A DNA stretch of 32,000 bases from an uncultured archaeon. GTDB taxonomy: Archaea > Asgardarchaeota > Jordiarchaeia > Jordiarchaeales > Jordiarchaeaceae. Numbering within the stretch: position 1 is the stretch's first letter; the number at the start of each line of letters is the position of its first letter. Of this stretch, positions 13,697 through 30,673 are shown in pieces. The DNA is taken from the NCBI GenBank assembly GCA_964510585.1, contig CAZECW010000060.1, positions 37,721-69,720 on the forward strand, given 5' to 3'. Below the pieces are notes generated by a model. That model searched no databases. It was not told the DNA's origin and saw only the letters and a list, made by a program, of their open reading frames with translations. Made by a program: the position numbers and the translations under genes.

Positions 13697-14743
13697 ATGA
13701 TTAAAACCAAATTAACCGAAATGCTTGGAATAAAATATCCCATAATACAGGCTGGAATGGGGCCCCATAACACTACAAATCTTGCGGCTGCCGTGGCAAA
13801 TGCGGGTGGACTGGGACTTATATCTAGCATCGGGATGGGTTACTTGGCTTTTATGGATAAGCCCCTTTTTGGATTTACCGAAAAAACTCCTAGAGAACAG
13901 ATGCTTCGCTCAATTGAAACTGTAAAAAACATGACCAAAAAAACTGGGGGTATATTCGGAATAAATGTGCCTGTGGCAGTCGAGTTTCAATCCATTTCGA
14001 AAGAACTCATAGAAGCAGGGCTTGAAGCTAGGGAAACCGATGAGGAAGTTAGAAGAAGAATGAAGGTCGTAGTAACCTCTGCAGGGAATCCAGAACCCTT
14101 TGTAGAGAGTATAAAAGAATCGGGAGCTTACCATTTTCATGTATGCCCCTCACCCTACCATGCGAAAAAAGTTGAAGGATTTGGCACCGATGTGGTAATA
14201 GCCTCTGGCCATGAGGGTGGCGGTCACGTCGCACATGAACCAGTACATACAATGGTTCTACTTCCAGAAGTTGTAAAGACTGTCAAAATCCCTGTAGTTG
14301 CAGCGGGAGGCATTTGTGATGGAGCAACACTTGCAGCTGCTTTGGCTCTGGGTGCAGTAGGTGTTCAGATGGGTACGCGTTTTATTGCAACCAAGGAGAG
14401 TGATTTCCATCAACCCTACAAGGATTATGTTGTGAATATTAAGGATGTTAGGGACACCGTTTTGGCTAAGGGTCTCTTTGGGAAAATTAGGTACATGAAG
14501 AATCCCGCCGCATTAAGACTTTTGCAGGCGGAGCAAAGGGGCGCATCAGAAACAGAGCTTTTCAATCTTGAAATGGTGGGATTCGCAGCTATTGATAAAG
14601 GGGACATAGAGAACTCAGCTATGGCGGGGGGTGAAGTAGCAGGTAGAATTTCAGATATCCCTACAGTGAGGGAACTTATGGAGCGAATTGTTAATGAAGC
14701 AGAAGATATCATTAGAAACAGGTTACCAAAATTAATCGTCTAG
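13697..14743 (+). CDS. FMN-dependent nitronate monooxygenase/FabK-family flavoprotein (paralog 1)
   Basis: LTEMLGIKYPIIQAGMG, ANAGGLG, FGIN, GHEGGGH, VAAGGICDG, GAVGVQMGTRF, GEVAGRI. Confidence 0.88.
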   Translation: MIKTKLTEMLGIKYPIIQAGMGPHNTTNLAAAVANAGGLGLISSIGMGYLAFMDKPLFGFTEKTPREQMLRSIETVKNMTKKTGGIFGINVPVAVEFQSISKELIEAGLEARETDEEVRRRMKVVVTSAGNPEPFVESIKESGAYHFHVCPSPYHAKKVEGFGTDVVIASGHEGGGHVAHEPVHTMVLLPEVVKTVKIPVVAAGGICDGATLAAALALGAVGVQMGTRFIATKESDFHQPYKDYVVNIKDVRDTVLAKGLFGKIRYMKNPAALRLLQAEQRGASETELFNLEMVGFAAIDKGDIENSAMAGGEVAGRISDIPTVRELMERIVNEAEDIIRNRLPKLIV

Positions 14744-14945
14744 TCTGTTTATTTTTAATATGAGGAGGGAGTTTCGGGTAAAGCTTACTTGAAGGGGTGT
14801 TTACCGCACCCTCTTTGTTGGGCTGCCTTCATTCTTTATGTTTTTGTTTAAAGTAGCACTCTTTGGCTTCTTTGGTAAAAGGATCTGATTCTAAAAACTG
14901 TTATCCTCCAATGGAGTGTGTTTGTAGAAAGTCAAAAAAAGGAGT

Positions 14946-15800
14946 TTAGCTTTTTATATGTAGTATTTTTCTGGCTTCTTTGGGTGTTGCAATTTCTCTT
15001 CCTATGTCCTCGGCCATTCTTACGACTTTCTCTACAAATTGGGCATTGCTTTTTGCGAGTTCACCCTTTGAGATGTATATGCTGTCCTCCATGCCCACGC
15101 GTACGTGTCCTCCTAGTACTATGGTAACTGCGGCTATGGGGAATGCGTATCTCCCCATTCCCGCCGCCTGCCAAGTGGAGTTTGGGGGGATGCTCTCCAC
15201 TAGGTGTATTAGATTTTTGGGTGTGGGGAGAATGCATTGACCTGGAATTCCCATTACGAAGTTAAAGTGTAGGGGTTCTTTGAGTGCCCCAATTTCTTTT
15301 AGGAGCATGACGTTGTTTATGAAGCCAGTGTCGTAGATTTCGAGTTCAGGTTTTGTTCCGTTTTCAAGCATTGTTCGGGATATGTACTCTAACTCGGAAT
15401 AGTTTTGTTTTAAGACGAAGTCTCTTATCCATTTTCGTTCTTCAAAATCGTATCTTCCTGTTAGTCCTGCGCCCACGCTGAATGATGCTAATTCGGGTTT
15501 GAAGGTGGGTATTAGTTCCAGTCTCTTCTCTAAGGGTATTGTTGCCGCACCGCCAGTGGAAACGCATATGATGGCATCGCACTTCTGTCTTATTCCTTCA
15601 ATTATTTTTCCGAAAATCTTTACATCTGTGGTGGGTCTATTTTGTTCGTCTCTGGCATGAACATGTATAATTGAGGCGCCTGCCTCCCAGCATTCATAGG
15701 CCTGTTTAATTATTTCCTCCGGCTTCTCGGGAAGATTAGGGTTATCGGCTTTGGTGTGAAAGTTTCCAGTTAAGGCTACACATATTATTAGCTTCTCCAT
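14946..15800 (-). CDS. Beta-keto acid cleavage enzyme (BKACE/DUF849, Kce family)
   Basis: ALTG, GASIIHVHARD (2 His), STGG, PELASF, ELEIYDTG, HVRVGMED. ATG at 15800 preferred over the TTG at 15806. Confidence 0.9.
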   Translation of the reverse strand: MEKLIICVALTGNFHTKADNPNLPEKPEEIIKQAYECWEAGASIIHVHARDEQNRPTTDVKIFGKIIEGIRQKCDAIICVSTGGAATIPLEKRLELIPTFKPELASFSVGAGLTGRYDFEERKWIRDFVLKQNYSELEYISRTMLENGTKPELEIYDTGFINNVMLLKEIGALKEPLHFNFVMGIPGQCILPTPKNLIHLVESIPPNSTWQAAGMGRYAFPIAAVTIVLGGHVRVGMEDSIYISKGELAKSNAQFVEKVVRMAEDIGREIATPKEARKILHIKS

Positions 15801-15822
15801 CTTCAACCGCCCATTTTTTGTG

Positions 15823-16629
15823 CTATTTTGCTTTAAAGTCTGGTTTGCGTTTCTCTATAAAGGCTCTTATTCCTTCCTTTGCATCTTCGCTTTGCCTTAG
15901 GGGTTCTGCTAAGTACTGTTCCAAGAGGAGACCTTCTCTTAAGGGCATTTCCATACCTCGGAGAACCGCCTTCTTTATTGCCCTAACGGCTAGTGGGCCC
16001 TTCTCACATATTTCTTGGGCGGTTTCCATTGCGGTGGGCATTAGTTTTGGGAGGGGCACTACTTTGTTGACAAGGCCTATTTGGAGCGCTTCTTGCGCGT
16101 TTATTCTTTTCGCCATCATCATCATTTCAAGGGCTTTGGCTATACCTATTATTCTGGGTAATCTTTGCGTTCCACCGGCTCCGGGTATTATTCCTAATTG
16201 TGCCTCTGTTAGGCCGAAAACCGCGTTTTCTGAAGCTATTCTGATGTCGCAGGCGAGTGCTATCTCCATTCCTCCAGCCAAACAATAACCATTTATTGCA
16301 GCAATTATGGGTTTCCATATCTCGAGGTTTCTTGTTATTCCTCCAAGTCCTGGTTCCTTTTCTGCAATTTCCAAGCGTTCAGCTGAACTGAACTTGGAAT
16401 AGAATTCTCCAATTTTTCTCACATCAGCCCCAGCGCAGAAGGACTTGTCTCCTGCTCCAGTTATTATTGCCACCCAAAGATTTGGATCGTCTCTGAAATC
16501 TATCCACGCTTTGTTTAGCTCTACGATAGCGTCTGGGTCTAGTGCGTTTCGAACTTCAGGGCGATTTATGGTTATTATGGCTATCCTATCCTTCTTTTCG
16601 TAAATTATACTCATGTTAAACACATCCAT
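15823..16629 (-). CDS. Enoyl-CoA hydratase (crotonase) with both catalytic Glu
   Basis: FCAGADV, GGMEIALACD and GLTEAQLGIIPGAGGTQRL. The true start may be the ATG at 16614. Confidence 0.93.
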   Translation of the reverse strand: MDVFNMSIIYEKKDRIAIITINRPEVRNALDPDAIVELNKAWIDFRDDPNLWVAIITGAGDKSFCAGADVRKIGEFYSKFSSAERLEIAEKEPGLGGITRNLEIWKPIIAAINGYCLAGGMEIALACDIRIASENAVFGLTEAQLGIIPGAGGTQRLPRIIGIAKALEMMMMAKRINAQEALQIGLVNKVVPLPKLMPTAMETAQEICEKGPLAVRAIKKAVLRGMEMPLREGLLLEQYLAEPLRQSEDAKEGIRAFIEKRKPDFKAK

Positions 16630-16631
16630 CT

Positions 16632-17093
16632 TTAAATTGGCTTAAAATAATCAATGTCCAGAATATTTCCCTCTCGCTGATCCTTGAATACTGCTTGCAC
16701 ACGCATACCGGGTTTAATCTTATCTAGGTCCACTTCTCCAAGGATGTGAACAATATTGGTGTCCGCTCCATCAAGTTTAATGATGCCGTAGGCCAACGGT
16801 GGCTTCTTGGGCAGGTTGGGGCTGGAGCGATAAGTAACAGTGTAGGCAATCAAAGTGCCCTTGTCTCCAACCTCTACCCATTCATTGGTCTCCGCCATAC
16901 ACTTCCCACAATATCTACGTGGAGGTACCAGAATTTGGCCGCATTTGGGACACTTAACTCCCATAATTCTCTTGTTATCCCTAAGCTCTATGAAGAACTT
17001 GCTAGCAACGCGCCCCACACTATAGCTGAAGGGCAAAACAATCCTTGTAGGTAGTATGACAGCGTCTTCCTTCTCACTCATTTTTAGTCTCAC
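16632..17093 (-). CDS. DUF35 Zn-ribbon/OB-fold acyl-CoA-binding protein
   Basis: CPKCG...PPRRYCGKC Zn ribbon, GTLIAYT, IKLDGADT, GMRVQAVF, GNILDIDYF. GTG overlaps the upstream stop (GTGA); alternative ATG at 17081. Confidence 0.9.
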   Translation of the reverse strand: MRLKMSEKEDAVILPTRIVLPFSYSVGRVASKFFIELRDNKRIMGVKCPKCGQILVPPRRYCGKCMAETNEWVEVGDKGTLIAYTVTYRSSPNLPKKPPLAYGIIKLDGADTNIVHILGEVDLDKIKPGMRVQAVFKDQREGNILDIDYFKPI

Positions 17094-17584
17094 TCCTCAA
17101 TTGTTCTAAAGAAAATAATGTCCGTGATGTTTCCTTCAAGTTCTTCTCTCCAAACGGCTTGAACCCTCATTCCGATTCTCATCTTGCTTAAATCATTCTC
17201 TTCCAGAAAGTAGTTGATTGTAGTATCTGCGCCGTCCAGTTGAATGAGAGCCATCCCGTAAGGCACTGGCCTAGGCTTCCCAGTTCTAGGGTCTACGAAT
17301 GGCTGATAAACTACAGTGTAGGCTTTAACCGTCCCCTTATCGCTAATCTCAGACCACCCATCTATCTTCTTGTAACATTCGCCACAGATGAGGCGGGGGG
17401 GCAGATAAACCCGGCCGCAACTTGAACATTTGGCACCTAAAATCTTTCTCTCCTCTTTCCAAGCTCTATAAAATTTAGTATAGTAACTACCTCCAGACCA
17501 GCGGTACTCAAGATTCATATTTATGGAAACCCTAAGAAGATCCTTCTCTTCTTTTACTTCTTCCTTACCTTCACCCTTAGACAT
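17090..17584 (-). CDS. DUF35 Zn-ribbon/OB-fold acyl-CoA-binding protein
   Basis: CSSCG...PPRLICGEC, GTVKAYT, IQLDGADT, GMRVQAVW, GNITDIIFF. Confidence 0.9.
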   Translation of the reverse strand: MSKGEGKEEVKEEKDLLRVSINMNLEYRWSGGSYYTKFYRAWKEERKILGAKCSSCGRVYLPPRLICGECYKKIDGWSEISDKGTVKAYTVVYQPFVDPRTGKPRPVPYGMALIQLDGADTTINYFLEENDLSKMRIGMRVQAVWREELEGNITDIIFFRTIEE

Positions 17585-17596: not shown

Positions 17597-18754
17597 CTAT
17601 AAATGGCTTGATAAAACCATCATATCACACCAAGTGTAAACACCGTATCCGTGAACTAGGACTGTTTCAACATCAGGCACCTGCCTCTTACCACCCTTTC
17701 CATGAATCTGCAACGCTCCCTCCGCAGCCCTGATAACTCCTGAAGCACCCACAGGATTTGTGGATAGAACTCCCCCGGAAGGGTTTACGGGGAGCTCACC
17801 GTCCATTGAGGTAACGCCCTCATCCACTAGTTTGCCAGCTTCCCCTTCCTTACAGAATCCCATAGCTTCGTACCATGCCATCTCAGCATAAGAAACTGGC
17901 TCGTATATCTCAGCAACGTCGAATTGTTTCAGAGGGTTAGTTATGCCTAACTTTTTATAGATTATATTGCAGCACTCGCGGATGGTTCTTATGGTGGCCA
18001 ATCTGTTTATGTGATCCCCTAAATAGGGGGTATCGTGTCTGGTAACCGCAGCTTTAACCCAAGCGGGGTTTTCACAAAGTTCTTTTGCCTTCTTCTCGGA
18101 AGCATAAATAATTGCGCAGGCGCCGTCGGACTGTGGACACATATCAAACAAATGAATGGGATAAGCTATGTACCTTGAGTTCAAAACTTTTTCAACGGTT
18201 AAATCGGGAATGTGAAGGTGGGCATAGGGATTGTTCAAAGCGTTCTTCCTAGCTTTAACAGCAACTTTGGCAGCTTGCTCCTGTGTAACTCCCCTAGAAG
18301 CCATATATTCTGTTATGGAAAGTGCGAAGTTTCCAGGCGCAGCGGAGGCCACTGGTCTATCCCAGAAGGGATCGGCAAGAGCCATACCGGCAAATGTGTG
18401 GCCGTCAGAGTGTTTTTCGAATCCCACAACCATCACAATATCAAAGAGCCCCGATGCAGTAGTGTAATATCCGGCTATGGCTGCAGAGGAGCCTGAAGTG
18501 CCCCCAGTAGCAATCTTTAACTGGTGTTTCAGGTAGGCGCCAGCCCCTTCCGCAACCCACATGTCTGGAAGAGCTCTACCCTCAAATAGCTCCATATTAT
18601 CTGTTATCACCGCATCTATATCCTTTATCTCTAATTGAGCATCTTCTAGGGCTCTACTTGCAGCTTCGAATACCATTTCTGCTTGATTAGCATCATTCCT
18701 TTTACTTACATGCTTGGTTTGGCCCGTTCCAATAATGGCTACATTTCTCTTCAT
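17597..18754 (-). CDS. Thiolase-fold (SCP-x type) protein lacking catalytic Cys, Ltp3-like putative aldolase subunit
   Basis: IIGTGQT, DMCPQSDGACA, DVAEIYEP, PVNPSGGVLSTNPVGASG, RQVP. The nucleophile position reads ATGGTSG (no Cys) and GHP is replaced by TNP. Confidence 0.88.
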   Translation of the reverse strand: MKRNVAIIGTGQTKHVSKRNDANQAEMVFEAASRALEDAQLEIKDIDAVITDNMELFEGRALPDMWVAEGAGAYLKHQLKIATGGTSGSSAAIAGYYTTASGLFDIVMVVGFEKHSDGHTFAGMALADPFWDRPVASAAPGNFALSITEYMASRGVTQEQAAKVAVKARKNALNNPYAHLHIPDLTVEKVLNSRYIAYPIHLFDMCPQSDGACAIIYASEKKAKELCENPAWVKAAVTRHDTPYLGDHINRLATIRTIRECCNIIYKKLGITNPLKQFDVAEIYEPVSYAEMAWYEAMGFCKEGEAGKLVDEGVTSMDGELPVNPSGGVLSTNPVGASGVIRAAEGALQIHGKGGKRQVPDVETVLVHGYGVYTWCDMMVLSSHL

Positions 18755-18773: not shown

Positions 18774-19931
18774 TCATCTGCCCACAATAACCACGCAGTG
18801 CATTTGCCCACAGGGACCGGTAGTCCCATGTGCCAGCGCTGTTTCTACTTCAGGCACTTGGCGTTTACCTGCTTCACCCCAGCACTGCTCTACAGTTTCA
18901 ACCAGTCTGGTTAAACCTGCCACGATGTAGGGGTTTCCTGCAAGCATACCGCCTGAGGTATTGACTGGTAGCTCTCCGTCCATTTCAGTTATTCCCTCAT
19001 CTATGAGCCTTCCGGCGTCACCTCTTTTACAGAAGTCCAGTCCCTCTAACCATAAAAGTTCCTGATAGGAGAAGGGTTCTGAAATTTCTGCAACGTCAAT
19101 CTCCTTCAAGGGCTTATTGATACCTGCAAGTTCATAGGCTCTCTTGGCAGCTATGGTTAATGCGGAACACTCGGTAAGGTCTCGGTCGCCGAGGTAGTGG
19201 GAGTCGTAGCAGTTGCCCATTCCCTTAATCCAGACTGGTTCTCTCCCCTTTTCCCTAGCTATTTCCTTAGCTCTCTTCTCCGATGCCAGAATCAAGGCAC
19301 ATGCACCATCCGAAACAGGAGCTGCTTCAAGGGATTTGATGGGGTAAGATAATATTTCTGATTGAAGAACGTCGTCCACACTTATGTTCATCGGTTGGTA
19401 GGCGTAGGGATTATTAAACGCGTTTCTATGATTTTTAACTGAAACCTTAGCAAAATGCTCCTCAGACAAGCCGTATTTATTCATGTACCAACTTGCCTGT
19501 AACCCTGCAGAAGAGAGATAATCTAACCCCAACATCTGCTGGTAAACAGGATCAAAAACCCAATTAGTAATATCGTAGTGAGTACCCCTGGAACCTAAAC
19601 AGTGGGCTACAACCATGACAACGTCAAAGTCGCCCGATAGAATATTTAAAGCTGCATGGAAGGCGGCCAGAATGCCGTCGTCGGCAACTCTGGTTTCTGA
19701 ACCCATAACGCCCCCAACCACTTCAGTGAGGAATGCGCCAGAAGCAGTGGCGCCGTCCCAGAGGTCTACAGAGGCGCTCACAGTGTTTTCGATGTCCTTT
19801 ATGTTTAGACCTGCATCCTCCAGAACCTTGGTTACAACCTCGTAAGCAACTTCGGGAATGGTTTTATTCAGCACTAAACCATATTTTGATTGTGCTGTCC
19901 CAACAATACCCACTTTTTCTGGTAGACCCAT
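18774..19931 (-). CDS. Thiolase-fold protein lacking catalytic Cys, Ltp4-like putative aldolase subunit
   Basis: VGIVGTAQ, APVSDGACA, DVAEISEPFSY, PVNTSGGMLAGNPY, AHGTTGPCGQ. The nucleophile position reads VADDG. ATG at 19931 has an AGGTG SD and is preferred over the ORF-track start at 20030. Confidence 0.87.
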   Translation of the reverse strand: MGLPEKVGIVGTAQSKYGLVLNKTIPEVAYEVVTKVLEDAGLNIKDIENTVSASVDLWDGATASGAFLTEVVGGVMGSETRVADDGILAAFHAALNILSGDFDVVMVVAHCLGSRGTHYDITNWVFDPVYQQMLGLDYLSSAGLQASWYMNKYGLSEEHFAKVSVKNHRNAFNNPYAYQPMNISVDDVLQSEILSYPIKSLEAAPVSDGACALILASEKRAKEIAREKGREPVWIKGMGNCYDSHYLGDRDLTECSALTIAAKRAYELAGINKPLKEIDVAEISEPFSYQELLWLEGLDFCKRGDAGRLIDEGITEMDGELPVNTSGGMLAGNPYIVAGLTRLVETVEQCWGEAGKRQVPEVETALAHGTTGPCGQMHCVVIVGR

Positions 19932-19965: not shown

Positions 19966-20766
19966 TCATTTGTCCTTGAATTCCGCCTTTCTTTTTTCCA
20001 AAAAGGCGGCCATTCCTTCCCTTGTATCAAAAGTTGTGAAATTTATTAGAACAGTGTTTATGGAGTAGTCTATTGCTGTGTCTAGGTCGGTTGTCATCCA
20101 TTTGTGAATGATGTCCTTCTGTGTGGCGAACACCGTGTTGCTATACCTTGTAAGTGTGTCTACCCACCGCTGAACTTCTTTGTCCAGTTCTTCTGGTGGC
20201 ACCACTGCATTAACTAGTCCCCGCCGCTCTGCTTTTTCAGCATCCCAAAATTTTCCTGTAAGAGCCAGTTCTCTTGCGCCCATTATGCCAATAGCTTGAA
20301 CCAGAATTGCGGCTTCCACAATGGCTGGGATTCCAACCTTGATGTTGGGAAGGCCGAACTTGGAGCGGTTAGTGGCAATTATGAAGTCGCATGAAATTGC
20401 TAGTTCAAGTCCCGCCCCTAAACAGTAACCGTCAACAGCGCATATGATGGGTCTTTCACAGGTTCTACAGGCGAGAAAGGTTTTGTGTAATTGCTTGGGA
20501 ATCTCTCTTTGCTTCCAAACTTCGCTGGGAAGGCTTACAAAATCGATGTCTGTTCCGGCGCTGAAAGCCTTATCTGTGGTGGATTTGATGACTATTACCT
20601 TTACTTCATCATCTTTTTGAAACTCTTTCAGTGTTTCCTCTATTTCGACTAATAGGTCCATGTTGATGGCGTTCAATTTTTCGGGGCGATTCAGAAATAT
20701 TCTACCTACCGGAGGATCTTTTTGGGTGATTATTGTTTTGAGTTTTTTCTCTTCTTTTACTACCAA
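19966..20766 (-). CDS. Enoyl-CoA hydratase/isomerase-family protein (second Glu replaced by Asn)
   Basis: FSAGTDI, GAGLELAISCD, FGLPNIKVGIPAIVEA. TTG start with an AGGAGG SD. Confidence 0.9.
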   Translation of the reverse strand: MVVKEEKKLKTIITQKDPPVGRIFLNRPEKLNAINMDLLVEIEETLKEFQKDDEVKVIVIKSTTDKAFSAGTDIDFVSLPSEVWKQREIPKQLHKTFLACRTCERPIICAVDGYCLGAGLELAISCDFIIATNRSKFGLPNIKVGIPAIVEAAILVQAIGIMGARELALTGKFWDAEKAERRGLVNAVVPPEELDKEVQRWVDTLTRYSNTVFATQKDIIHKWMTTDLDTAIDYSINTVLINFTTFDTREGMAAFLEKRKAEFKDK

Positions 20767-20902: not shown

Positions 20903-22642
20903 TTATAGCACTCCGAGGAAGAATCGTTCAGGGTCAAAGATTCTCAAGAGGAATAATTCTTGTTCGGATGGCGGTTCAATTTTTTCAAGAGGGTCTGCTA
21001 ACTCAACCTTCCATCCAGTGTTCTGTATAATTTTTTGAATCATTTCACTCTCCGAAATTCCTCTTTGAGCATAGTATTTTTTCAGAACCATAATTCCGTG
21101 TTCTTTTTCGAAAACTGCATGTGAGGTTATGATTTTGCTAACCTTTTCCCCGGGACATGTTATGTAGGGCACCTTATCTACAAGACGCTCTTTGTTTTGC
21201 ACCATTATCACCATGGTCTCCCTAGCTCTAGCAACTATGTCGTTGGCGCCCCCACTGCCCACCAGTGTAACTCCATCAGTTCTTGTTGAGTTAATGTTTC
21301 CGTACTTGTCAACTTGTCCAGCAGACAGAATGGCCATAGACTTGGGATAGTTGACATTTATTCCAATAGAACCCACCAAATCGGTTATCATTTTGCATGT
21401 GGGTATGTTTGCCATAGTAAATATGAATGGGTCTGTTGGTTTTGGAAGATATCCAAACATGCCCCACTCCACGAGTAGATCTACCAGAATGTTCTCAGAT
21501 CTTAGTGTGTGGGTTGCCAGCCATGCAGCTAAGTTTGCCATGCCGATTCCTGCAAGGAGAATCTTGTAATCTTTACTTTTTATCGTTTTAACTAGTTCTC
21601 TGGAAGCTGTGACGATGGCTCTTTCCTCTTCGGTAAAATTATTGAAACTAGGCATATTACGTATAGTGTGGGGAAGCAGCTGCTTCCAGGAGTCGGGGTT
21701 ACCTCTCCCCCTAAGAATCATCAGTCTCTCGAAGCCTAGTTTGTTCAAGTAACCTTGAAAGTTTCCAACATCATAAATCCACTCTTTTATCCACTTTTGC
21801 ATAGTCTCCTCTTTTTTACTGGCATTATTTAATTCGATATTAAAGGGAATATCTTGGTAATAGCTTGAGCCGTCAGGAGCGTAGAAAGAGAAGGGGTGAG
21901 CTCCAAAAGGAGTCTCACAAACAGCTTTTACAAAGTGGCCGGGAATATCAACCATTGGAGCGTTTTTCCTAATGAAATCCGTTGAAACAATTTTCTCAAC
22001 TGTTACTATTGCCCCATTACGGCTAGCATAAGCGCCGTAAGCTCTTTCACTCATAGGTAACCCTATTATAGTGTTCCCATTTGGGTCGGCGCACCAAGCA
22101 TGGAGTATAGAGAAGTCGGGCTTCACAGCCTTGAGTAAACCCACTTTTTCCCCACTTCCAAAGGGATCATCAATGACAAGGAAGCTATCTTTTAACTCCT
22201 TCTCCATAGTTGAACCTATCATAGACTTTGTGGGTATAAACTTGACATCCAGAGCTCCCGCTAATAGTCTTAGAACTATGGAAAGCATTGACCAGTGCTC
22301 CACTTCCATGCCCTTATCAATAGCTCTCTGAAAGGCCCTTGAAGGAGAGGGGGCTGGAAAAACATTACCCATATAGCTTGCTATCAGCTTTTTTATTAGA
22401 TTCGATGCCGCGAGTATCTGAACTTGCAGGGCGCTTCCTAAACAAATTATTTCAAACTGCGGATTCTTGTCTCTGAACTGTCTACATATTTCGCTTATGG
22501 CACTAAATGAACTCCTATTAGTAGATATGTGTAAAAACATTTTAGGTCGTATGTATTTCTTTATTGCTTCTTCCAAGGGGAGAACTTTGCTCTCTCCTTC
22601 GTAGAGCTCTGTTTTGAAAATGTCTTCATACTCTTTAGACAA
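20903..22642 (-). CDS. Family I CoA-transferase, fused alpha+beta subunits (GctAB-like)
   Basis: Alpha half: LHAWCADPNGN, TVEKIV, PFGAHP. Beta half: AGIG, LLVEWG, SAGQVDKYGNINST, VGSGGANDI, VPYITCPG. Confidence 0.88.
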   Translation of the reverse strand: MSKEYEDIFKTELYEGESKVLPLEEAIKKYIRPKMFLHISTNRSSFSAISEICRQFRDKNPQFEIICLGSALQVQILAASNLIKKLIASYMGNVFPAPSPSRAFQRAIDKGMEVEHWSMLSIVLRLLAGALDVKFIPTKSMIGSTMEKELKDSFLVIDDPFGSGEKVGLLKAVKPDFSILHAWCADPNGNTIIGLPMSERAYGAYASRNGAIVTVEKIVSTDFIRKNAPMVDIPGHFVKAVCETPFGAHPFSFYAPDGSSYYQDIPFNIELNNASKKEETMQKWIKEWIYDVGNFQGYLNKLGFERLMILRGRGNPDSWKQLLPHTIRNMPSFNNFTEEERAIVTASRELVKTIKSKDYKILLAGIGMANLAAWLATHTLRSENILVDLLVEWGMFGYLPKPTDPFIFTMANIPTCKMITDLVGSIGINVNYPKSMAILSAGQVDKYGNINSTRTDGVTLVGSGGANDIVARARETMVIMVQNKERLVDKVPYITCPGEKVSKIITSHAVFEKEHGIMVLKKYYAQRGISESEMIQKIIQNTGWKVELADPLEKIEPPSEQELFLLRIFDPERFFLGVL

Positions 22643-22717: not shown

Positions 22718-23764
22718 CTAGATTTGAATCACAATTCTAATGGGGTTTCCCACCTTTTTCTCCAATCTTTCCAGTCCCTCATTTACCTGTTCAAGTTTTA
22801 ACACCTGACTAATAGACCGTGAAAGATCAAGCTTCTTCATTTTAATTAACTCCAATATTCGGTCAATCTCCTCCTTGTTGCTGCCAAACGAGCCCATAAC
22901 CTGATCTTCGCAGTAAACGAATATGTAGGGTGAAACCAGTTCTATTTTTTCTGGCCCAATTCCCACAATGACCGCTCTTCCACCTTTTCGAATACTTTTA
23001 ACTGCTCGGTCTATGGTAGTCGCCATTCCCACGAATTCTAAAGCCAAGTCCACACCCTTGCCCCCTGTGATTTCGCTGATTCTTTTACCCGTTTTCTCCC
23101 TAGCAGAATTTATGGTGAAGTCAGCTCCCAGCATCTTGGACCTTTCAAGAATTTCATCAGAAACATCTATAGCAATAATTTTGGAGGCCCCAGCCAATTT
23201 AGCTATCTGTATTGCGTGAGAGCCTAAACCTCCACATCCAAAAATAGCTACGGTCTCACCTAACCTTAGGTTTCCACGGGTGATTATCGCGTGGTATGGA
23301 GTTGCGACAGCATCACCAATAATGGCGGCTTGTTCGAAGGGAACACCCTCTGGTATTTTTGTAAGACAATTTTTAGGTATTTTCAGGTAATCTGCCAAGC
23401 CACCATCTACGTGAAGACCCAGTATTTGAGCATTTACACAAAGCGCTTCGCGACCACTTCTACACGCGTAGCATGCGCCACACGTGATGGAGGAAATAAC
23501 TAGAACTTTATCTCCAATCTTCCATCCTTCCACCCCTTCTCCTATTTCCGCGATTTCTCCAGCTATCTCGTGTCCCAGAGTTATTGGTGTTTTTGCGGGG
23601 GGAATGGTGCCGTCGCGGGCTATGTGCACATCTGTGCCACAGATCCCACAGGCCTTAACTTTTATCAGCACCTCTCCCGCCCCAATTTTGGGAATAGGTA
23701 ATTTTTCGATAGTTAGGGGTTCGCCGGCTTTGTAGAATCTTGCGGCTCTCATAGTAGCTTCCAT
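22718..23764 (-). CDS. Zn-dependent alcohol dehydrogenase (MDR superfamily)
   Basis: CGICGTD, GHEIAG, structural Zn CGACYACRSGREALC, GCGGLG. Confidence 0.93.
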   Translation of the reverse strand: MEATMRAARFYKAGEPLTIEKLPIPKIGAGEVLIKVKACGICGTDVHIARDGTIPPAKTPITLGHEIAGEIAEIGEGVEGWKIGDKVLVISSITCGACYACRSGREALCVNAQILGLHVDGGLADYLKIPKNCLTKIPEGVPFEQAAIIGDAVATPYHAIITRGNLRLGETVAIFGCGGLGSHAIQIAKLAGASKIIAIDVSDEILERSKMLGADFTINSAREKTGKRISEITGGKGVDLALEFVGMATTIDRAVKSIRKGGRAVIVGIGPEKIELVSPYIFVYCEDQVMGSFGSNKEEIDRILELIKMKKLDLSRSISQVLKLEQVNEGLERLEKKVGNPIRIVIQI

Positions 23765-23789
23765 TAGTCACTAGCACTCCTATACTTTT

Positions 23790-24638
23790 TTAAAGCTTGA
23801 ACACCTTTATGGCATTATCTCTTAGGAGTTTTTTCTTTACTTCGTAGCTTAAACCTAGTTCGTCAATCTCTTTAAGGCATCTCTTGAAGTCTAGAAGGGG
23901 ATAATCAGTTCCCCAGAGGACTTTATCCTGCCCCCAGGTTGCCACGAACTGTTTGAATGATCCGGGCCAGAATTTGGGTGCACGAGCAGAGGTGTCTATA
24001 TAAACATTTGGAAATTTCCACGCTAAAATCATCATTTCCTCATGCCAAGGCTGACCAAGATGTCCGCCAATTATTTTCAGCTCAGGGAAAAACAAAGCAA
24101 CCTCATCCAAGTATATGGGTCGCGCACACTCTGATGGCAAAAGCGGTCCGGTGTGACCTATCTGGATGGTAACCGGTATGTCAAGCTCGACACATTTTGC
24201 ATAGATAGGATAATAGTATTTGTGATTTGGAGGCAAACCCACAATGCCGTCCGCATACTGGTAAGGCTCCAACTTGATGGCTTTGAAATGCAAGTCGTTC
24301 ACTATTCTCTCCACTTCTCTTACAGCCTTCATACCATCGCGTGGGTCAACCGTACCACAGCCTATGAATCGGTCCGGAAACTTGTCGCAGATTTTGGCAA
24401 CATCATCGTTGCTCACTCCAACTCCCTTGTATTGGAATGCGGAGGCAATCAGCTTATCTACTCCAGCTTCGTCCATCTCTTGGATTATTATTTCAGGATC
24501 TACGCCTTCCAAGATTTTGTGAGATGCCTTGTACCGGTCAAAAATATGGGTGAACTCAGGCGGCCAGGTGCCTTTTATCTTACCAACACCAGCCCAAACA
24601 TCAATAGCTCCTATCCTAGAAGACAAATCTATCACCAC
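23790..24638 (-). CDS. Amidohydrolase_2-family protein (paralog 1)
   Basis: IDVW, EMDEAGV, PDRFIG, QIGHTGP, FPELKIIGGHLG, NVYIDTSA, KVLWGTDYP, NAIKVFKL. Confidence 0.9.
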   Translation of the reverse strand: MVIDLSSRIGAIDVWAGVGKIKGTWPPEFTHIFDRYKASHKILEGVDPEIIIQEMDEAGVDKLIASAFQYKGVGVSNDDVAKICDKFPDRFIGCGTVDPRDGMKAVREVERIVNDLHFKAIKLEPYQYADGIVGLPPNHKYYYPIYAKCVELDIPVTIQIGHTGPLLPSECARPIYLDEVALFFPELKIIGGHLGQPWHEEMMILAWKFPNVYIDTSARAPKFWPGSFKQFVATWGQDKVLWGTDYPLLDFKRCLKEIDELGLSYEVKKKLLRDNAIKVFKL

Positions 24639-25009: not shown

Positions 25010-26692
25010 TTGGTGAAAAAAATGGGCAGAAAAATAACTTATAAGGATAAGCCTTGGCTGAAAAACTACGATCCCGGCGTACCTGAACATGCCAAATATC
25101 CTGAAATACCAGACTTTGGACTCTTGGAGCAAGCAGCTAAAGACCCTGTGGATGCTACCATGCTCCTTTACCAAGATAGAAAATTCAAGTACAGGGAGAT
25201 AAATGAACTGAGTGACAGGTTCGCCGCAGGATTAGTGGAATTGGGCGTGAAGAAGGGTGATTTTGTTGGTCTACATCTCATAAATCTTCCCCAGTGGTTC
25301 ATCAGCTACTATGGCATCCAAAAGGCCGGAGGTGTTCCAGCGGTAATCAGCCCATTGTATACTGGAGAAGAACTAAAGAGACAAATGAATATTTGTAAAA
25401 CAGAGGTGCTAATCACCTTTGATTTCTTTTATCCCATAGTAAAGGAAATACTTAACAAAACTATGATCAAAAAGGTCATTATGACCAACACTACAGAGTA
25501 CGGGGATAATCCTCAACCCATACAGGTTCCCAAGACAGAAGCATACCATTTTAAGGAGTTGGTGGAGTCAAGTCCGCCAAATCCGCCTAAAGTCAAAATA
25601 AATGTGAAGGAAGATGCCGCCGCACTCTACTTCACGGGAGGCACAACTGGAATCCCAAAAGGAGCGATACTTACACACTACAATATTGTGGCAAACACCA
25701 TCCAGCACCAACTCTGGGCTAAGGGCTACTGGGAAAAAGGTAAAACAGTGTTCCAGACAATGTATCCACCCTTCCATGCAGGCGGAAACGGAGCGTTTCA
25801 TTTAGTATTCAGTAACCTAGCAGCATATATTTGCTTACCTAATCCCAGAGACTATGACGCCATGTTGAGAAACTTTGGAAAATATAAAGTCAACATATTC
25901 GCTGGAGTCCCTGCCATCTACACTGGCTTATTAAACCACCCAAACTTTGAGAAAGCGGATTTCAGTTCACTTAAAATCTGTATCTCGGGTTCGGTAGCGC
26001 TTCCCCCCGATCTAGTAAACGAGTGGGAGAAAAAAACAGGGTCAAAACTAGTTGAGGTTTATGGAATCACAGAAGCCTCACCGATCGGTTTGTGTAATCC
26101 ATGGAAAGGCAAACGAAAAATAGGCAGCATAGGCTTGCCCCTAACGGACACTGAAGCCAAAATAGTTGACATAGTGGATGGAGTGGAAGAGATGCCAGTA
26201 GGAGAACCAGGCGAACTCATAATTCGCGGTCCCCAAGTCTTCAAGGGCTACCTAGATATGCCGGAAGAAACCGCAGATACCATAAGGGGAGGATGGCTAT
26301 ACACTGGGGACATTGCAAAAATGGACGAAGACGGCTACTTCTACATTGTTGACCGAAAAAAGGACATGATTAACGTTTCCGGTTTCCACGTCGGAGGAAG
26401 AGAGGTCGACGATGTCCTCTACGAGATACCATCAGTTATGCTCGCTGCAGCCGTAGGGATACCTGACCCGAAAAGGCCAGGAAGCGAGATAATAAAAGCA
26501 TACATCGTTTTAAGACCAGAATACGAGGGAAAGGTGAAGGAACAAGAAATAATTGATTACTGCAAAAAGAAACTCGCACCCTACAAGGTACCAAAACTAA
26601 TAGAATTTAGAAAGGAGCTTCCAATGAGTTCCATAGGCAAACCCTTAAAGAGAGTACTAAGAGAAGAAGCAAAAAAAGAAAAAACCAACTAG
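25010..26692 (+). CDS. Long-chain fatty-acid/acyl-CoA ligase (ANL superfamily)
   Basis: YFTGGTTGIPKG, VYGITEAS, IGSIG, RGPQVFKGY, YTGDIAKMDEDGYFYIVDRKKD, APYKVPK, IGKP. The true start is likely the ATG at 25022. Confidence 0.94.
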   Translation: MVKKMGRKITYKDKPWLKNYDPGVPEHAKYPEIPDFGLLEQAAKDPVDATMLLYQDRKFKYREINELSDRFAAGLVELGVKKGDFVGLHLINLPQWFISYYGIQKAGGVPAVISPLYTGEELKRQMNICKTEVLITFDFFYPIVKEILNKTMIKKVIMTNTTEYGDNPQPIQVPKTEAYHFKELVESSPPNPPKVKINVKEDAAALYFTGGTTGIPKGAILTHYNIVANTIQHQLWAKGYWEKGKTVFQTMYPPFHAGGNGAFHLVFSNLAAYICLPNPRDYDAMLRNFGKYKVNIFAGVPAIYTGLLNHPNFEKADFSSLKICISGSVALPPDLVNEWEKKTGSKLVEVYGITEASPIGLCNPWKGKRKIGSIGLPLTDTEAKIVDIVDGVEEMPVGEPGELIIRGPQVFKGYLDMPEETADTIRGGWLYTGDIAKMDEDGYFYIVDRKKDMINVSGFHVGGREVDDVLYEIPSVMLAAAVGIPDPKRPGSEIIKAYIVLRPEYEGKVKEQEIIDYCKKKLAPYKVPKLIEFRKELPMSSIGKPLKRVLREEAKKEKTN

Positions 26693-26965
26693 TCCCACAT
26701 TTCTTATTTTTTTATTTTTGGAACAATTTTTCCAATAAATCTAAGCTATATTGTGGCGATTTTTCACTGTCCTGCCAACTTTTAATCTCAGCCTTTCTCA
26801 GCCCCTTTTTAGGAACGCTTTTACACCCCACAACAGTCTGGGAAGTCACCTAACCCATCCTCTAAAATCACTCCAAACAAATGTCCCCCAAATCACCACA
26901 AAAAACGAAAAAGGGAAAGAGTGATAAATCGTGGAATTTTTTCTCCTTTAGCTGTTTTTTCTTTT

Positions 26966-27805
26966 TTATAATTTGAAGACTTTGATTGCGTTCTCTCTCA
27001 GAATTTTTCTTTTAGCTTGTTCGCTCAGTCCTAGAGCTTCAATTTCTTCGATGCATCTCTTAAAGGTTAGAAGAGGATAGTCAGTACCCCAGAGCACTTT
27101 GTCCTGTCCCCAGGTTGCCGCAAAAAGCTTGAATGAGTCCGGCCAATACTTTGGAGCTCGAGCAGAGGTGTCCACGTACACATTGGGGAACTTCCATGCA
27201 AGTATCATCATTTCCTCGTGCCAAGGTTGTCCAAGATGTCCACCTATTATTCTCAGTTCTGGGAAGAACAGGGCAACCTCATCTAGGTAAATTGGCCTAG
27301 CGCATTCTGAGGGCAAAAGTGGACCTGTGTGGCCTATTTGGATGGTGACGGGTATGTCAAGCTCGACACATTTTGCATATATCGGATAGTAGTATTTATG
27401 GTTGGGAGGAAGGCCCACAATTTCATCACCATAAGCGTAGGGTTCAAGTTTGATGGCTTTAAAATGTAGGTCGTTTACTATTCTTTCCACTTCTCTAACA
27501 GCCTTCATACCGTCACGCGGATCTACGGTTCCACAGCCGATGAATCTGTCTGGAAACTTATCGCAGACTTTCGCTATGTAATCATTATCTACTCTCATTT
27601 CTTTGTAAACGAATGCGGATAATATCACCTTCTCTACTCCGGCTTCATCCATTTCCTGAATCATTTCTTCGGGTGTGAATCCTTTGTACATTTTTTCTGG
27701 GGTTTTATATCTCTGGAAAATGTGTAAAAACTGAGGGGGCCAATTTTTTGTTTGCTCTGGAGGCAAAACACCCGCCCAGCAATCTATTGCACCTATTTTA
27801 CTCAT
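26966..27805 (-). CDS. Amidohydrolase_2-family protein (paralog 2)
   Basis: IDCW plus the same core motifs as 23790-24638. The core is nearly identical to paralog 1 by manual alignment. Confidence 0.9.
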   Translation of the reverse strand: MSKIGAIDCWAGVLPPEQTKNWPPQFLHIFQRYKTPEKMYKGFTPEEMIQEMDEAGVEKVILSAFVYKEMRVDNDYIAKVCDKFPDRFIGCGTVDPRDGMKAVREVERIVNDLHFKAIKLEPYAYGDEIVGLPPNHKYYYPIYAKCVELDIPVTIQIGHTGPLLPSECARPIYLDEVALFFPELRIIGGHLGQPWHEEMMILAWKFPNVYVDTSARAPKYWPDSFKLFAATWGQDKVLWGTDYPLLTFKRCIEEIEALGLSEQAKRKILRENAIKVFKL

Positions 27806-27868: not shown

Positions 27869-27908
27869 TCAGAATTTTTTTATCTGAACATCCCTAATCT
27901 GGTGATGC

Positions 27909-28694
27909 TCATTGTTTTTTTCTCTCCAAGAATGCTCTAACGCGTTTTTTGTGTTCCTCTGTTTGGAAGCATAAGGTCTGCATGGTCATCTCGTAGTCTA
28001 ACGCTTCCTCCAAACTCATGTTAAATCCTTTATGTATTGCCTTCTTTGTGGCTCCCAGAGCCCTTAAAGGAAACATTTTAAGTAGATTAGCGTACTCCCT
28101 TACCGTTTTATCGAGTTCTTCGGCTGGTACAACCCTGTTAACCAAACCCAACTTTTCCGCCTCTTTAGCATCTACTAACCTTCCAGAGAAAATGAGCTCG
28201 ACCGCCCTATGAAAACCTACAAGCCGGGGTAGGAGCCAACTTCCCCCGCCGTCAGGAATGAGTCCTATGGCGAGAAATATCTGCCCGAAACGCGCCTTAT
28301 CTGAAGCTATCACAATGTCACAGGCCATGGCTACATTGCATGCTCCTCCAGTGGCTACACCGTTAACTGCAGCTATCACGGGCTTTTCCATATTCCAAAT
28401 AATCCTGACTATTTCCGCCAAGTTTTGGTTCAAAGTTTTTCTGAGTTCGAAGGGGGGCGTTCGGTGCGCCATTTCCATATCCCCCATGTCCCCTCCAGAA
28501 CTGAAGGCTTTGCCCACACCCGTAATTATCACCACTTTTATGGAATCGTCTAAAGCTAGGCTGTTTAGAGCTTGCACCATTTCTTCCTGCATCTCTATTC
28601 GCATGGCGTTCAACTTTTCCGGCTGATTCATTCTAATTATCGCTGTTCCGTCATCCTTCTCCAAAAGAATATATTTGAAACTAATACCAATCAC
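27909..28694 (-). CDS. Crotonase-family protein, PaaG-like isomerase type (no Glu pair, Asp in PDGGG)
   Basis: FSSGGDM, GGACNVAMACD, FGQIFLAIGLIPDGGGSWLLPRLVG. Confidence 0.9.
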   Translation of the reverse strand: MIGISFKYILLEKDDGTAIIRMNQPEKLNAMRIEMQEEMVQALNSLALDDSIKVVIITGVGKAFSSGGDMGDMEMAHRTPPFELRKTLNQNLAEIVRIIWNMEKPVIAAVNGVATGGACNVAMACDIVIASDKARFGQIFLAIGLIPDGGGSWLLPRLVGFHRAVELIFSGRLVDAKEAEKLGLVNRVVPAEELDKTVREYANLLKMFPLRALGATKKAIHKGFNMSLEEALDYEMTMQTLCFQTEEHKKRVRAFLERKKQ

Positions 28695-28763: not shown

Positions 28764-29810
28764 TTATACGACCAATTTTGGTAATTTGGTCTTTATAATT
28801 TCTTCTGCCTCTTTCACGATTGTCTCGATTAATTCCTTTACTGTAGGAATATCTTTTATTCTGCCAGCAACTTCGCCTCCTGGCATCGCTGAATTTTCAA
28901 TATCGCCAGCATCTATAGCCTCTAATGATTTAATCTCAAATTTAACTTGCTCTTCCTCCGATGCACCAGACTTGGCTAATTCGAGCATCTTCAAAACTGC
29001 TGGGTTTTTAAGATACCTAAGATTCCCAAATAACCCCTTAGCAACCACAGTATCTCTGACATCATTAATATCTCTCACAAAATTCTTGTAGCTGGGCAAA
29101 AAGTCGCTTTCTTTAGTTGCAATGAATCTTGTGCCCATTTGGATTCCCACCGCGCCTAGAGCTAACGCTGCAGCCAGAGTGGCTCCGTCACAAAAACCAC
29201 CAGCACCCACAACTGGAATCTTAACGGAGCGAACAACCTCAGGCAGCAAAACCAGAGTGTGAACTGGATCGTAGGCTACGTGTCCACCCCCCTCATGTCC
29301 TGAGGCGATTACTAGGTCTGTACCCATCTTTTCAACCTTTTTAGCATGGTAGGGGGATGGTACCACATGAAAATGGTAAGCTCCCGATTCTTTTATACTC
29401 TCCACGTAGGGTTCAGGGTTACCCGCAGATGTGATAATTACTTTAAGCCTCTTTGCAACCTCCGAATCTGTCTCTCTAGCTTCTAGGGCTGCGTTAATTA
29501 GTTCGCCGGCTACTGATTGGAACTCCACGGCTACTGGCACATTGATTCCAAAAATTCCCCGGGAACTCTTAGTTAGCTCTTTAACCTTCTGTATTGAGGA
29601 GAGCATTTGTTCTCGGGGAGTGAGATTTTCAAAACCGAAAAGAGGCTTAAACCCGAGAGCCACGACTCCCATACCTATACTGGATATGATTCCTAATCCA
29701 CCGGCGTTTGCAACAGCGGCTGATAGTTTCATTGTGTTGTAGGGACCCATACCTGCCTGTATTATGGGATGTTTTATTCCAAGCATTTCGGTTAATTTGG
29801 TCTTTATCAT
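28764..29810 (-). CDS. FMN-dependent nitronate monooxygenase/FabK-family flavoprotein (paralog 2)
   Basis: 348 aa and co-linear without indels with 13697-14743. GHEGGGH and GIQMGTRF motifs. GGAGG SD. Confidence 0.88.
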   Translation of the reverse strand: MIKTKLTEMLGIKHPIIQAGMGPYNTMKLSAAVANAGGLGIISSIGMGVVALGFKPLFGFENLTPREQMLSSIQKVKELTKSSRGIFGINVPVAVEFQSVAGELINAALEARETDSEVAKRLKVIITSAGNPEPYVESIKESGAYHFHVVPSPYHAKKVEKMGTDLVIASGHEGGGHVAYDPVHTLVLLPEVVRSVKIPVVGAGGFCDGATLAAALALGAVGIQMGTRFIATKESDFLPSYKNFVRDINDVRDTVVAKGLFGNLRYLKNPAVLKMLELAKSGASEEEQVKFEIKSLEAIDAGDIENSAMPGGEVAGRIKDIPTVKELIETIVKEAEEIIKTKLPKLVV

Positions 29811-29856
29811 TTACTTCCTCCTTGATTGCAAGTGGTGTGCTGTTTGTAGCTCATAT

Positions 29857-29873
29857 GTATAAATGTTTTTCCC
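29857..29873 (-). promoter_or_regulatory. BRE-TATA promoter of NMO paralog 2
   Basis: Minus strand GGGAAAAAC-ATTTATAC (purine-rich BRE followed by TTTATA), ~47 bp upstream of the ATG. Confidence 0.45.
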
Positions 29874-29983
29874 ATCCGTAGAGTTTAGTTTCAATCCTGA
29901 ATTGGCAGAAGCTGACTCTATATTTGAAGTTCAAATTTTTATGGCAGTGTATGTTTGGATTGCTCGCAGCTTGATTTGTGACT

Positions 29984-30673
29984 TTAACCGCCCAGAGCGG
30001 CTTTTGATATTTTTGAGAATTCCTCCATGTTTGTGGCTGCGATGCACATTTTCTTTACCGCCATTAGCGTTTCCAGTTTTGATTCGCATATCTGTTGGGC
30101 GTAGGCTTTGGCTTCTTGGAGAACTTTGTCTGGTGGAACCAATTTGTTAACCAGCCCAATTCTTAGTGCTTCTTCTGCATCGATTCTTCTTCCAGTGAAG
30201 CATAGGTCTCTGGCTAACCCGTCGCCTACCACTGGTTTTAGGAGTGTGTAGAGCGGTGTGGCTCCAAATTTTATTTCTGGATGTTGGAAAAACGCGTTTT
30301 GGGAAGAGATTCTAAAGTCACACATTAGAGCTAGGTCTAGTCCTCCCGCCAGTGCCGGTCCATTAAGCGCTGCTATTAGAGGTTTGGGAAAGGTCATCAC
30401 GTCTACATGATATTGCCATGATGCTTCAAAGAACGCTTGCATATTTTCTGGGGTTAGACTCATAAATTCAGATGTGTCAAAACCAGCAGAGAAAACTGGT
30501 CCCTTTCCCGTCAGTATAACTGCCTTCACCTCGTTATCTTTCGCTAACTGGGCAAGTATTTCTGTTAATTGCTTCCTGAGTTCTATTGAGAGCGCGTTTC
30601 TTTTCTTTTCTCTATTTAGGGTTACTATCGCAATGTTGCCTTCCTTTTCCACAATAACCAGTTTTTCCGACAT
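29984..30673 (-). CDS. Short crotonase-family protein (Asp/Glu pair, truncated C-terminus)
   Basis: FSAGFD, GGLDLALMCD, FQHPEIKFGA. 229 aa, lacking the usual final helix/RKPxF tail. GGAGG SD. Confidence 0.88.
   Translation of the reverse strand: MSEKLVIVEKEGNIAIVTLNREKKRNALSIELRKQLTEILAQLAKDNEVKAVILTGKGPVFSAGFDTSEFMSLTPENMQAFFEASWQYHVDVMTFPKPLIAALNGPALAGGLDLALMCDFRISSQNAFFQHPEIKFGATPLYTLLKPVVGDGLARDLCFTGRRIDAEEALRIGLVNKLVPPDKVLQEAKAYAQQICESKLETLMAVKKMCIAATNMEEFSKISKAALGG

Follow-up and report, generated by a model that had tools for sequence, protein, structure and literature searches.

We analysed a 32,000-nucleotide stretch of DNA (the window; bases 37721-69720 of contig C60) from the metagenome-assembled genome (MAG) of an Asgard archaeon, which is 3.78 Mb in size and 96% complete and whose public near-identical contigs carry the label Candidatus Jordarchaeia or Freyarchaeota. 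The window holds a 17-kb gene cluster which, with moderate confidence, we take to specify a beta-oxidation-like breakdown of CoA thioesters that is of bacterial origin and works by retro-aldol cleavage, with neither a hydroxyacyl-CoA dehydrogenase nor a working thiolase, the beta-keto-acid product being re-activated by a beta-keto acid cleavage enzyme (BKACE). Central to this reading are two thiolase-fold proteins, ThlA and ThlB, and two DUF35 proteins, DUF35a and DUF35b (all genes of the cluster are listed in Table 1).

An earlier note on this DNA, made from its letters, had described two thiolase-fold proteins lacking Cys, and an alignment that included PDB structures bears this out for both. 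In ThlA the nucleophilic Cys is replaced by Gly, the HDCF motif by YEPV and the His by Asn, and in ThlB the position of the nucleophilic Cys is lost and the thiolase catalytic residues are deleted or replaced. Neither protein thus has the residues expected of a thiolase (EC 2.3.1.9/16), namely a nucleophilic Cys, a catalytic His and the Cys of HDCF, and without these no acyl-enzyme can be formed. The Tyr of ThlA (in E-I-Y-E-P) aligns with Tyr294 of TcLtp2 and Tyr302 of CtSal, the experimentally proven catalytic base of retro-aldol cleavage (PMC12329534). ThlB has a Ser at this position, where Ltp4 keeps the Tyr, and is for this reason probably a non-catalytic partner. ThlA is likely the catalytic subunit, ThlB likely inert and the DUF35 proteins likely zinc-ribbon scaffolds, and non-thiolytic C-C cleavage, which the earlier note had put forward, appears to be the best reading of the active-site residues. 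The A-type sequences listed by the motif script, Ltp3 among them, have T-G/A-G at the nucleophile site, Y-x-P in place of H-D-C-F and Asn-Pro in place of Gly-His-Pro; four other A-type sequences (JC38, JC193, JC12 and L048) have T-C-G at the nucleophile site and keep Y-x-P and N-P. As a separate observation, an A-type subgroup (C38:12929-14086, C193:23347-24501 and C12:6660-7811, found also in Candidatus Methanolliviera) has a Cys one residue upstream, in A-T-C-G, and keeps Y-N-P; judging from these residues, its active site may be different.

The kinship of ThlA and ThlB with Ltp3 and Ltp4, which the earlier note had suggested from motifs, was examined by reciprocal searches and by phylogeny, and both uphold it. 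Among 301 sampled Actinomycetota genomes, 8 carry a true EchA19 equivalog, and the neighbourhood was read in two of these; it consists of Mce4 genes, a FadD19-like ligase, echA19, a P450 and a luciferase-like gene, followed by a module of the Rv3521-ltp4-ltp3 type, which encodes a double-DUF35 protein of 342-370 aa, an Ltp4 of 352-354 aa and an Ltp3 of 393-395 aa. ThlA is 40-42% identical to the Ltp3 orthologues, scoring 277 bits, whereas the next paralogue in the mycobacterial-type genome G154 reaches 137 bits, and in the reverse search it is the top match of Ltp3 in the archaeal genome, a reciprocal best hit, while Ltp4 matches the B-type partners there. In an IQ-TREE phylogeny of 111 thiolase-fold sequences, an A clade of 34 sequences unites Ltp3 with ThlA (SH-aLRT 96), a B clade, also of 34, unites Ltp4 with ThlB (SH-aLRT 99), and the two clades are sisters (SH-aLRT 97); the other thiolase-like paralogues of the actinobacterial genome, including one with the Ltp2 motif Y-D-H-F, fall outside both. 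The link to Rv3521, likewise claimed earlier, holds as well, since each of the archaeal DUF35 genes corresponds to one half of the double-DUF35 protein of the Rv3521 type, which is encoded upstream of ltp4 and aligns to both DUF35a and DUF35b. By sequence, the ThlA/ThlB/DUF35a/DUF35b module is homologous to the actinobacterial Ltp3/Ltp4/double-DUF35 module. The thlA and thlB genes adjoin, 19 nt apart, and the conserved adjacency of the module genes supports a complex.

In the route that we propose, an acid would be activated by the ligase or the CoA-transferase and desaturated by the NMO/FabK-like flavoproteins, a step for which the bacterial versions have acyl-CoA dehydrogenases. Hydration by the crotonase ECH1 would then give a 3-hydroxyacyl-CoA that cannot be oxidised, such as a tertiary alcohol at a beta-branch, and ThlA would cleave it by a retro-aldol reaction into acetyl-CoA and a ketone or beta-keto acid. 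BKACE would send the beta-keto acid back to the CoA pool, as a shortened acyl-CoA and acetoacetate, at no cost in ATP and with no thiolase. The zinc alcohol dehydrogenase (Zn-ADH) would supply or remove the keto group and could oxidise a 3-hydroxy acid to the keto acid, and the Rv3510c-like amidohydrolase may perform an accessory step, that is (de)carboxylation, LigJ-type hydration or lactone opening. The review literature proposes that Ltp3-Ltp4 works as a heteromeric aldol-lyase in the breakdown of C24-branched sterol side chains, acting on a hydrated beta-branched acyl-CoA and releasing a carboxylate that needs re-thioesterification (PMC6678751). The archaeal cassette would follow the same logic, but with BKACE in place of the ligase step.

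The proteins assigned to these other steps belong to known families, although they stand apart from the characterised members; indeed, no protein of the cluster reaches an NCBIfam equivalog cut-off. Enzymes of the BKACE family convert a beta-keto acid and acetyl-CoA to an acyl-CoA and acetoacetate. The archaeal BKACE passes the family model PF05853 (322 bits versus a cut-off of 24.8), has an H-x-H motif and a Glu that presumably correspond to the zinc ligands of Kce, and is 58-61% identical to the BKACE of Desulfobacterales cassettes; it lies below all NCBIfam equivalog cut-offs, scoring 307 bits for Kce (NF052387, cut-off 382). NMO1 and NMO2 score 220 and 219 bits for the FabK equivalog TIGR03151 (cut-off 453), the structure nearest to NMO1 is FabK (7L00), and from its family NMO1 may take the place that acyl-CoA dehydrogenases have in the bacterial cassette. 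The fused CoA-transferase (CoAT) matches glutaconate CoA-transferase (PDB 1POI; chain A, E 4.7e-28; chain B, E 1.5e-9), and a candidate catalytic Glu, picked by eye, lies in V-E-W-G. In Zn-ADH, CGICGTDVH and a run of four Cys (SITCGACYACRSGREALC) were picked out by eye as candidate zinc-site motifs, which we take, by their likeness to alcohol dehydrogenase motifs, to be the catalytic and structural sites.

The earlier note had presented the pathway as archaeal, which is misleading, since its core is a cassette widespread in bacteria and patchy in the archaeal genus. ThlA has thousands of homologues, and the nearest outside Jordarchaeia are 65-73% identical; near homologues come from Desulfobacterales, Chloroflexota, Acidobacteriota, Methylomirabilia and others, and one Bathyarchaeia contig has a copy at 79-80%. 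The bacterial cassette comprises ThlB, ThlA, two DUF35 genes, two to three crotonases, BKACE, an amidohydrolase_2 (AH2), Zn-ADH and two to three acyl-CoA dehydrogenases; some loci add hotdog thioesterases and TetR or HTH-cupin regulators, one has a Liv-type uptake system, and inside these cassettes neither a hydroxyacyl-CoA dehydrogenase nor a true thiolase was found. Ten genes of the window are 50-73% identical to their Desulfobacterales counterparts, with the order largely kept, and the identity to the bacterial copy is 65% for ECH1, 51-54% for ECH2 and 50-57% for Zn-ADH. ThlA and ThlB each form clades with bacterial cassette sequences at 100% support. The two versions differ in that the acyl-CoA dehydrogenases of the bacteria are replaced in the archaeon by two NMO/FabK-like genes, and the archaeal cluster adds the ligase and the fused CoA-transferase, the latter having no counterpart in the bacterial cassettes and being particular to the archaeal version, duplicates AH2, and lacks the hotdog thioesterase and the TetR/HTH-cupin regulator. 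One Acidobacteriota cassette (L084:11155-12564) has its two DUF35 domains fused, with a GNAT acetyltransferase domain between them.

The distribution of the cluster within the archaeal lineage is patchy. Four of five other genomes belonging to the genus have it, with nucleotide identities of 76-95%, and it is absent from a closed genome of the same genus (G370) and from the sister family. The closed genome keeps the flanking DHOD genes and the M48 peptidase gene, and it lacks window positions 4176-11930 and everything past 13405. This patchiness favours acquisition from bacteria, and the ten-gene core was most probably acquired in this way and then modified in the Jordarchaeial lineage. In a hot-spring sample taken independently, the same 17 kb lies unbroken on one 56-kb contig, which, together with the presence of the cluster in the four other genomes, indicates that the gene arrangement is not due to chance. 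The cluster was found in hot-spring metagenomes of at least seven studies, the habitat being anoxic hot-spring sediment. Two runs labelled metatranscriptomic and flagged as probably DNA (X14 and X17) yield contigs about 94-95% identical that span nearly the whole cluster, intergenic sequence included, at flat depth, and are therefore uninformative on expression. The block at 4176-11930 encodes an FAD-linked oxidase with an HdrD-like CCG protein, a divergent aldehyde dehydrogenase, a MarR regulator, two ORFs of no assigned function and an RDH/QueG-like Fe-S protein; it may belong to the same accessory region as the 17-kb cluster, and an aldehyde released by the aldolase could be a substrate of its aldehyde dehydrogenase.

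The genome as a whole is rich in related genes (24 thiolase-fold proteins, 16 DUF35 proteins, 22 crotonases, 21 ligases, 9 NMO, 6 BKACE and 12 amidohydrolase_2 proteins) and carries six A/B/DUF35/DUF35 modules. One of these, at C139:12825-22288 (L125), groups with Lokiarchaeial, Hodarchaeial and Odinarchaeial copies and has as neighbours two BKACE genes, a two-subunit glutaconate-type CoA-transferase, a FadH-like OYE flavoprotein and an MtmB methyltransferase; it may be a vertically inherited, ancestral Asgard version. Four further four-gene modules lie on contigs C38, C28, C27 and C87, and the C38 locus, which has an NMO of 64% identity, crotonases, an acyl-CoA dehydrogenase, two MFS transporters and a ligase, resembles a sister pathway of the window cluster. 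The check for an acyl-CoA carboxylase that the earlier note had called for found no biotin carboxyltransferase in the 96%-complete genome, so that an Atu/Liu-type route, which depends on a carboxylase, is not available.

With regard to the substrate, beta-branched isoprenoid-type acids are plausible and sterols unlikely, since the host is an anaerobic hot-spring archaeon in which the uptake, P450 and ligase components are missing. A bolder version of the proposal, which we regard as speculative and unlikely, is that the cassette is a self-contained anoxic bypass of beta-methyl branches in isoprenoid-type acids, independent of both thiolase and biotin, that would enable this archaeon to recycle phytanyl and other isoprenoid lipid chains in hot springs. 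Here the Ltp3/4-type aldolase would take acetyl-CoA off a 3-hydroxy-3-methyl-acyl-CoA, the Rv3510c-like amidohydrolase would carboxylate or decarboxylate, and BKACE would turn the beta-keto acid into the next acyl-CoA and acetoacetate.

Several points weigh against a bacterially derived retro-aldol pathway. The second catalytic residue of the characterised enzymes, Tyr344 in Ltp2 and Cys304 in Sal, has no obvious counterpart in ThlA, which reads Y-E-P-V here; for Ltp3/Ltp4-type enzymes the retro-aldol activity is deduced from genetics and from Ltp2 and Sal, and we found no in vitro assay of any such enzyme in the literature. The genome encodes 16 acyl-CoA dehydrogenases and 7 hydroxyacyl-CoA dehydrogenases elsewhere, so the missing steps could be provided in trans. 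How the steps are ordered, what BKACE, Zn-ADH and AH2 do and what the substrate may be is all inferred. As for the origin, in the ThlB tree the two archaeal sequences branch beside the bacterial group, as its sister, and not from within it, and the direction of transfer therefore rests mainly on the distribution. Finally, FabK-like enzymes normally reduce enoyl thioesters, so that the pathway could run reductively.

This last point leads to the strongest of the alternatives, a biosynthetic or reductive route in which acetyl-CoA and a ketone or aldehyde would undergo aldol condensation, followed by dehydration and FabK-like reduction of the enoyl-CoA, serving as an electron sink or for the synthesis of branched acids. 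NMO1 and NMO2, being nearest to the NADH-dependent enoyl reductase FabK and replacing the acyl-CoA dehydrogenases in the archaeon, are in line with it, and condensing systems such as thiolase/HMG-CoA synthase and PhlABC also have DUF35 complexes. CoAT has in addition a weak match to PDB 5MZW, which we take to be AibA/B, the enzyme that with AibC of the Zn-ADH family makes isovaleryl-CoA in myxobacteria. However, that match (E 2e-7 to AibA) falls far short of the one to glutaconate CoA-transferase given above, and the candidate zinc-ligand motifs of Zn-ADH fit an alcohol dehydrogenase better than an enoyl reductase. The bacterial versions moreover have acyl-CoA dehydrogenases, TetR/HTH-cupin regulators, binding-protein-dependent uptake and thioesterases, features typical of catabolic operons, which argues against the reverse direction, and we consider it unlikely.

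An amino-acid fermentation module, for lysine or beta-leucine, could also be built around a Kce-like BKACE, and we hold this to be improbable. The lysine-fermentation enzyme Kce is indeed the best NCBIfam match of BKACE, and the use of amino acids and fatty acids has been predicted in published work on related Asgard lineages. The BKACE score nevertheless stays below the Kce cut-off, Pfam reveals no aminomutase, 3,5-diaminohexanoate dehydrogenase or ammonia-lyase in the cluster, and the Ltp3/Ltp4/DUF35 module and AH2 would be left unexplained.

Degradation of sterol or steroid side chains as in Actinobacteria is suggested by the homology of the cluster's proteins to Ltp3, Ltp4, Rv3521 and the Rv3510c-like protein, with a weaker one to EchA19. 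The G154 sterol locus was recognised by its true EchA19 equivalog, Mce4 genes and P450. The top match of AH2b in this genome is a 317-aa amidohydrolase (42% identity, 175 bits) encoded 1 kb from the FadD19-like gene and 2.8 kb from echA19, to which AH2a is about 41% identical, and in the reverse search, of the amidohydrolase_2 paralogues matched in the archaeal genome, AH2a (186 bits) and AH2b (179 bits) score highest. The claimed relation to Rv3510c therefore stands as a reciprocal best hit with an amidohydrolase that synteny marks as Rv3510c-like. Both archaeal proteins carry D-x-W where H-x-H is expected, as had been noticed; D-x-W is invariant and the H-x-H metal motif absent in all nine aligned members, two His are kept, and the Asp of T-D-Y-P is kept in eight of the nine, being Asn in the actinobacterial one. 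The family includes reversible decarboxylases. The N-terminal H-x-H of the metal-dependent amidohydrolase_2 decarboxylases (ACMSD and LigW type) is not found in these proteins; among solved structures they come closest to BB4693, which is uncharacterised, and next to LigW and LigJ.

The crotonases and the ligase are less close to the sterol enzymes than the earlier note had supposed. In alignment the four crotonases differ at the two catalytic Glu positions, and ECH1 keeps both residues. Although ECH1 is the top match of EchA19 in the archaeal genome, it is so weakly (37% identity, 156 versus 140 bits for the next), and its score for the EchA19 equivalog NF051848 is 263 bits against a cut-off of 400, barely above that for DpgD (254 bits); membership of the EchA19 subfamily is thus not upheld, and ECH1 is weakly EchA19-like. 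The acyl-CoA ligase (ACS) had been called FadD19-like, but it is 24-26% identical to the FadD19-like ligase, and its best NCBIfam families are all generic FadD and all below cut-off, the top match being PRK05605 (418 bits versus 766). Mce4-type uptake genes, a P450 and a FadD19-type ligase are all absent from the window, the A/B module occurs widely outside steroid contexts, in numerous anaerobic bacteria and Asgard archaea, and the habitat is anoxic sediment. A Pfam search of the genome for 3beta-HSD gave generic matches and is uninformative, since all 14 control genomes also score. Sterol breakdown is therefore very improbable. Ordinary fatty-acid beta-oxidation with ThlA and ThlB working as thiolases has just as little to commend it: a canonical version is predicted in the description of Jordarchaeia (PMC9723677), a ligase, crotonases and thiolase-fold proteins are present in the cluster, and hydroxyacyl-CoA dehydrogenases are encoded elsewhere in the genome, but the thiolase residues are missing from ThlA and ThlB, neither the cluster nor the bacterial cassettes contain a hydroxyacyl-CoA dehydrogenase, and BKACE and AH2 would have no role.

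All gene families that the earlier note had named were recovered by Pfam at the positions it had given, with a single change. The start of ThlB lies at 19931 (385 aa) and not at 20030, according to gene callers run on identical public contigs, and the gene therefore does not overlap that of ECH2. The near-continuous minus-strand run from 24638 to 14946 that had been noted is real, comprising ten genes (AH2a, Zn-ADH, CoAT, ECH2, ThlB, ThlA, DUF35b, DUF35a, ECH1 and BKACE) with intergenic gaps of -4 to 136 nt, and ACS, AH2b, ECH3, NMO2 and ECH4 make up the right arm.

Table 1. Genes of the 17-kb cluster, with coordinates in the window.
Gene	Coordinates	Strand	Assignment and basis
NMO1	13697..14743	+	NMO/FabK-family FMN flavoprotein; Pfam NMO, 181 bits
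BKACE	14946..15806	-	Beta-keto acid cleavage enzyme; Pfam BKACE, 322 bits
ECH1	15823..16629	-	Canonical enoyl-CoA hydratase; Pfam ECH_1, 250 bits
DUF35a	16632..17093	-	Zinc-ribbon/OB-fold partner; Pfam zf-ChsH2 and OB_ChsH2_C; CxxC...CxxC motif
DUF35b	17090..17584	-	Second zinc-ribbon/OB-fold partner; Pfam; 4-nt overlap with DUF35a
ThlA	17597..18754	-	Ltp3-type (A-type) thiolase-fold protein; putative catalytic retro-aldolase subunit
ThlB	18774..19931	-	Ltp4-type (B-type) thiolase-fold protein; probably non-catalytic partner
ECH2	19966..20766	-	Crotonase with the first catalytic Glu only; Pfam and alignment
CoAT	20903..22642	-	Fused A+B family-I CoA-transferase, glutaconate CoA-transferase type; Pfam CoA_trans
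Zn-ADH	22718..23764	-	Zinc alcohol dehydrogenase; Pfam ADH_N and ADH_zinc_N
AH2a	23790..24638	-	Amidohydrolase_2, Rv3510c-like subfamily, without H-x-H; Pfam
ACS	25010..26692	+	AMP-forming acyl-CoA ligase, generic FadD type; Pfam
AH2b	26966..27805	-	Paralogue of AH2a, ~80% identical
ECH3	27909..28694	-	Crotonase without either catalytic Glu (Asn and Phe there); best matches isomerase-like families
NMO2	28764..29810	-	Paralogue of NMO1, 75% identical, inverted
ECH4	29984..30673	-	Short crotonase, 229 aa; Asp at the first catalytic position, Glu at the second

Two pairs of repeats are found at the DNA level. The NMO1 and NMO2 genes (13694-14406 and 29101-29813) form an inverted repeat of 70-78% identity that brackets most of the cluster, and AH2a and AH2b (23785-24084 and 26961-27260) form a direct repeat of 76% identity, 3.2 kb apart. 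Judged by sequence, these repeats are traces of internal duplication that post-dates the acquisition of the cluster, the copies in the right arm being the younger. No tRNA genes are found at the ends of the cluster. The window also has four ORFs of 216-357 aa without a Pfam match, at 30799-31872 on the minus strand and at 2199-3143, 3495-4415 and 10105-10755 on the plus strand; the first of these gave no match in an NCBIfam search either.

Full-text searches of the literature returned no paper that pairs BKACE with an Ltp3/4-type or DUF35 module and none on the cassette, and a search for Jordarchaeia together with thiolase returned nothing. Metabolic reconstructions of Jordarchaeia describe canonical beta-oxidation, whereas the present locus is non-canonical and probably derived from bacteria. 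The four-part module (A, B and two DUF35 domains) is ancient and present in anaerobic bacteria and Asgard archaea, and its recurrent pairing with BKACE suggests an ATP-free return of the free beta-keto acid released by the aldolase to CoA metabolism. Ltp3/Ltp4 represent a poorly understood step in the degradation of branched sterol side chains, and BKACE and the Rv3510c-like amidohydrolase are candidates for steps in the degradation of phytosterol side chains in mycobacteria that are still unassigned.

The cluster shares features with three known systems. With the BKACE family (Kce and the triacetate and dehydrocarnitine cleavage enzymes) it has in common the TIM-barrel Pfam family and the presumed zinc-ligand residues. 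ThlA shares with TcLtp2-ChsH2 (PDB 6OK1) and CtSal-Shy the SCP2-thiolase fold, a DUF35 partner, a Gly at the nucleophile site and a Tyr at the first HDCF position. However, Ltp2 and Sal are homodimers with a DUF35 domain on each subunit, whereas ThlA and ThlB are predicted to form a heteromer of two ancient paralogues; the former HDCF motif reads Y-E-P-V in ThlA, Y-D-H-F in Ltp2 and Y-D-C-Y in Sal, and in the tree ThlA belongs to a different clade from the Ltp2 orthologue. With the Rv3521-Ltp4-Ltp3 module the archaeal cluster shares the ThlA and ThlB clades, the two DUF35 domains, the Cys-less, Tyr-bearing pattern and, close by, an amidohydrolase from one and the same subfamily. That module has its DUF35 domains fused, where the archaeon has two genes, and the gene order is unlike; the actinobacterial locus has Mce4, P450 and FadD19, whereas the archaeal cluster, in an anaerobic host, has BKACE, Zn-ADH, FabK-like flavoproteins and a CoA-transferase instead.

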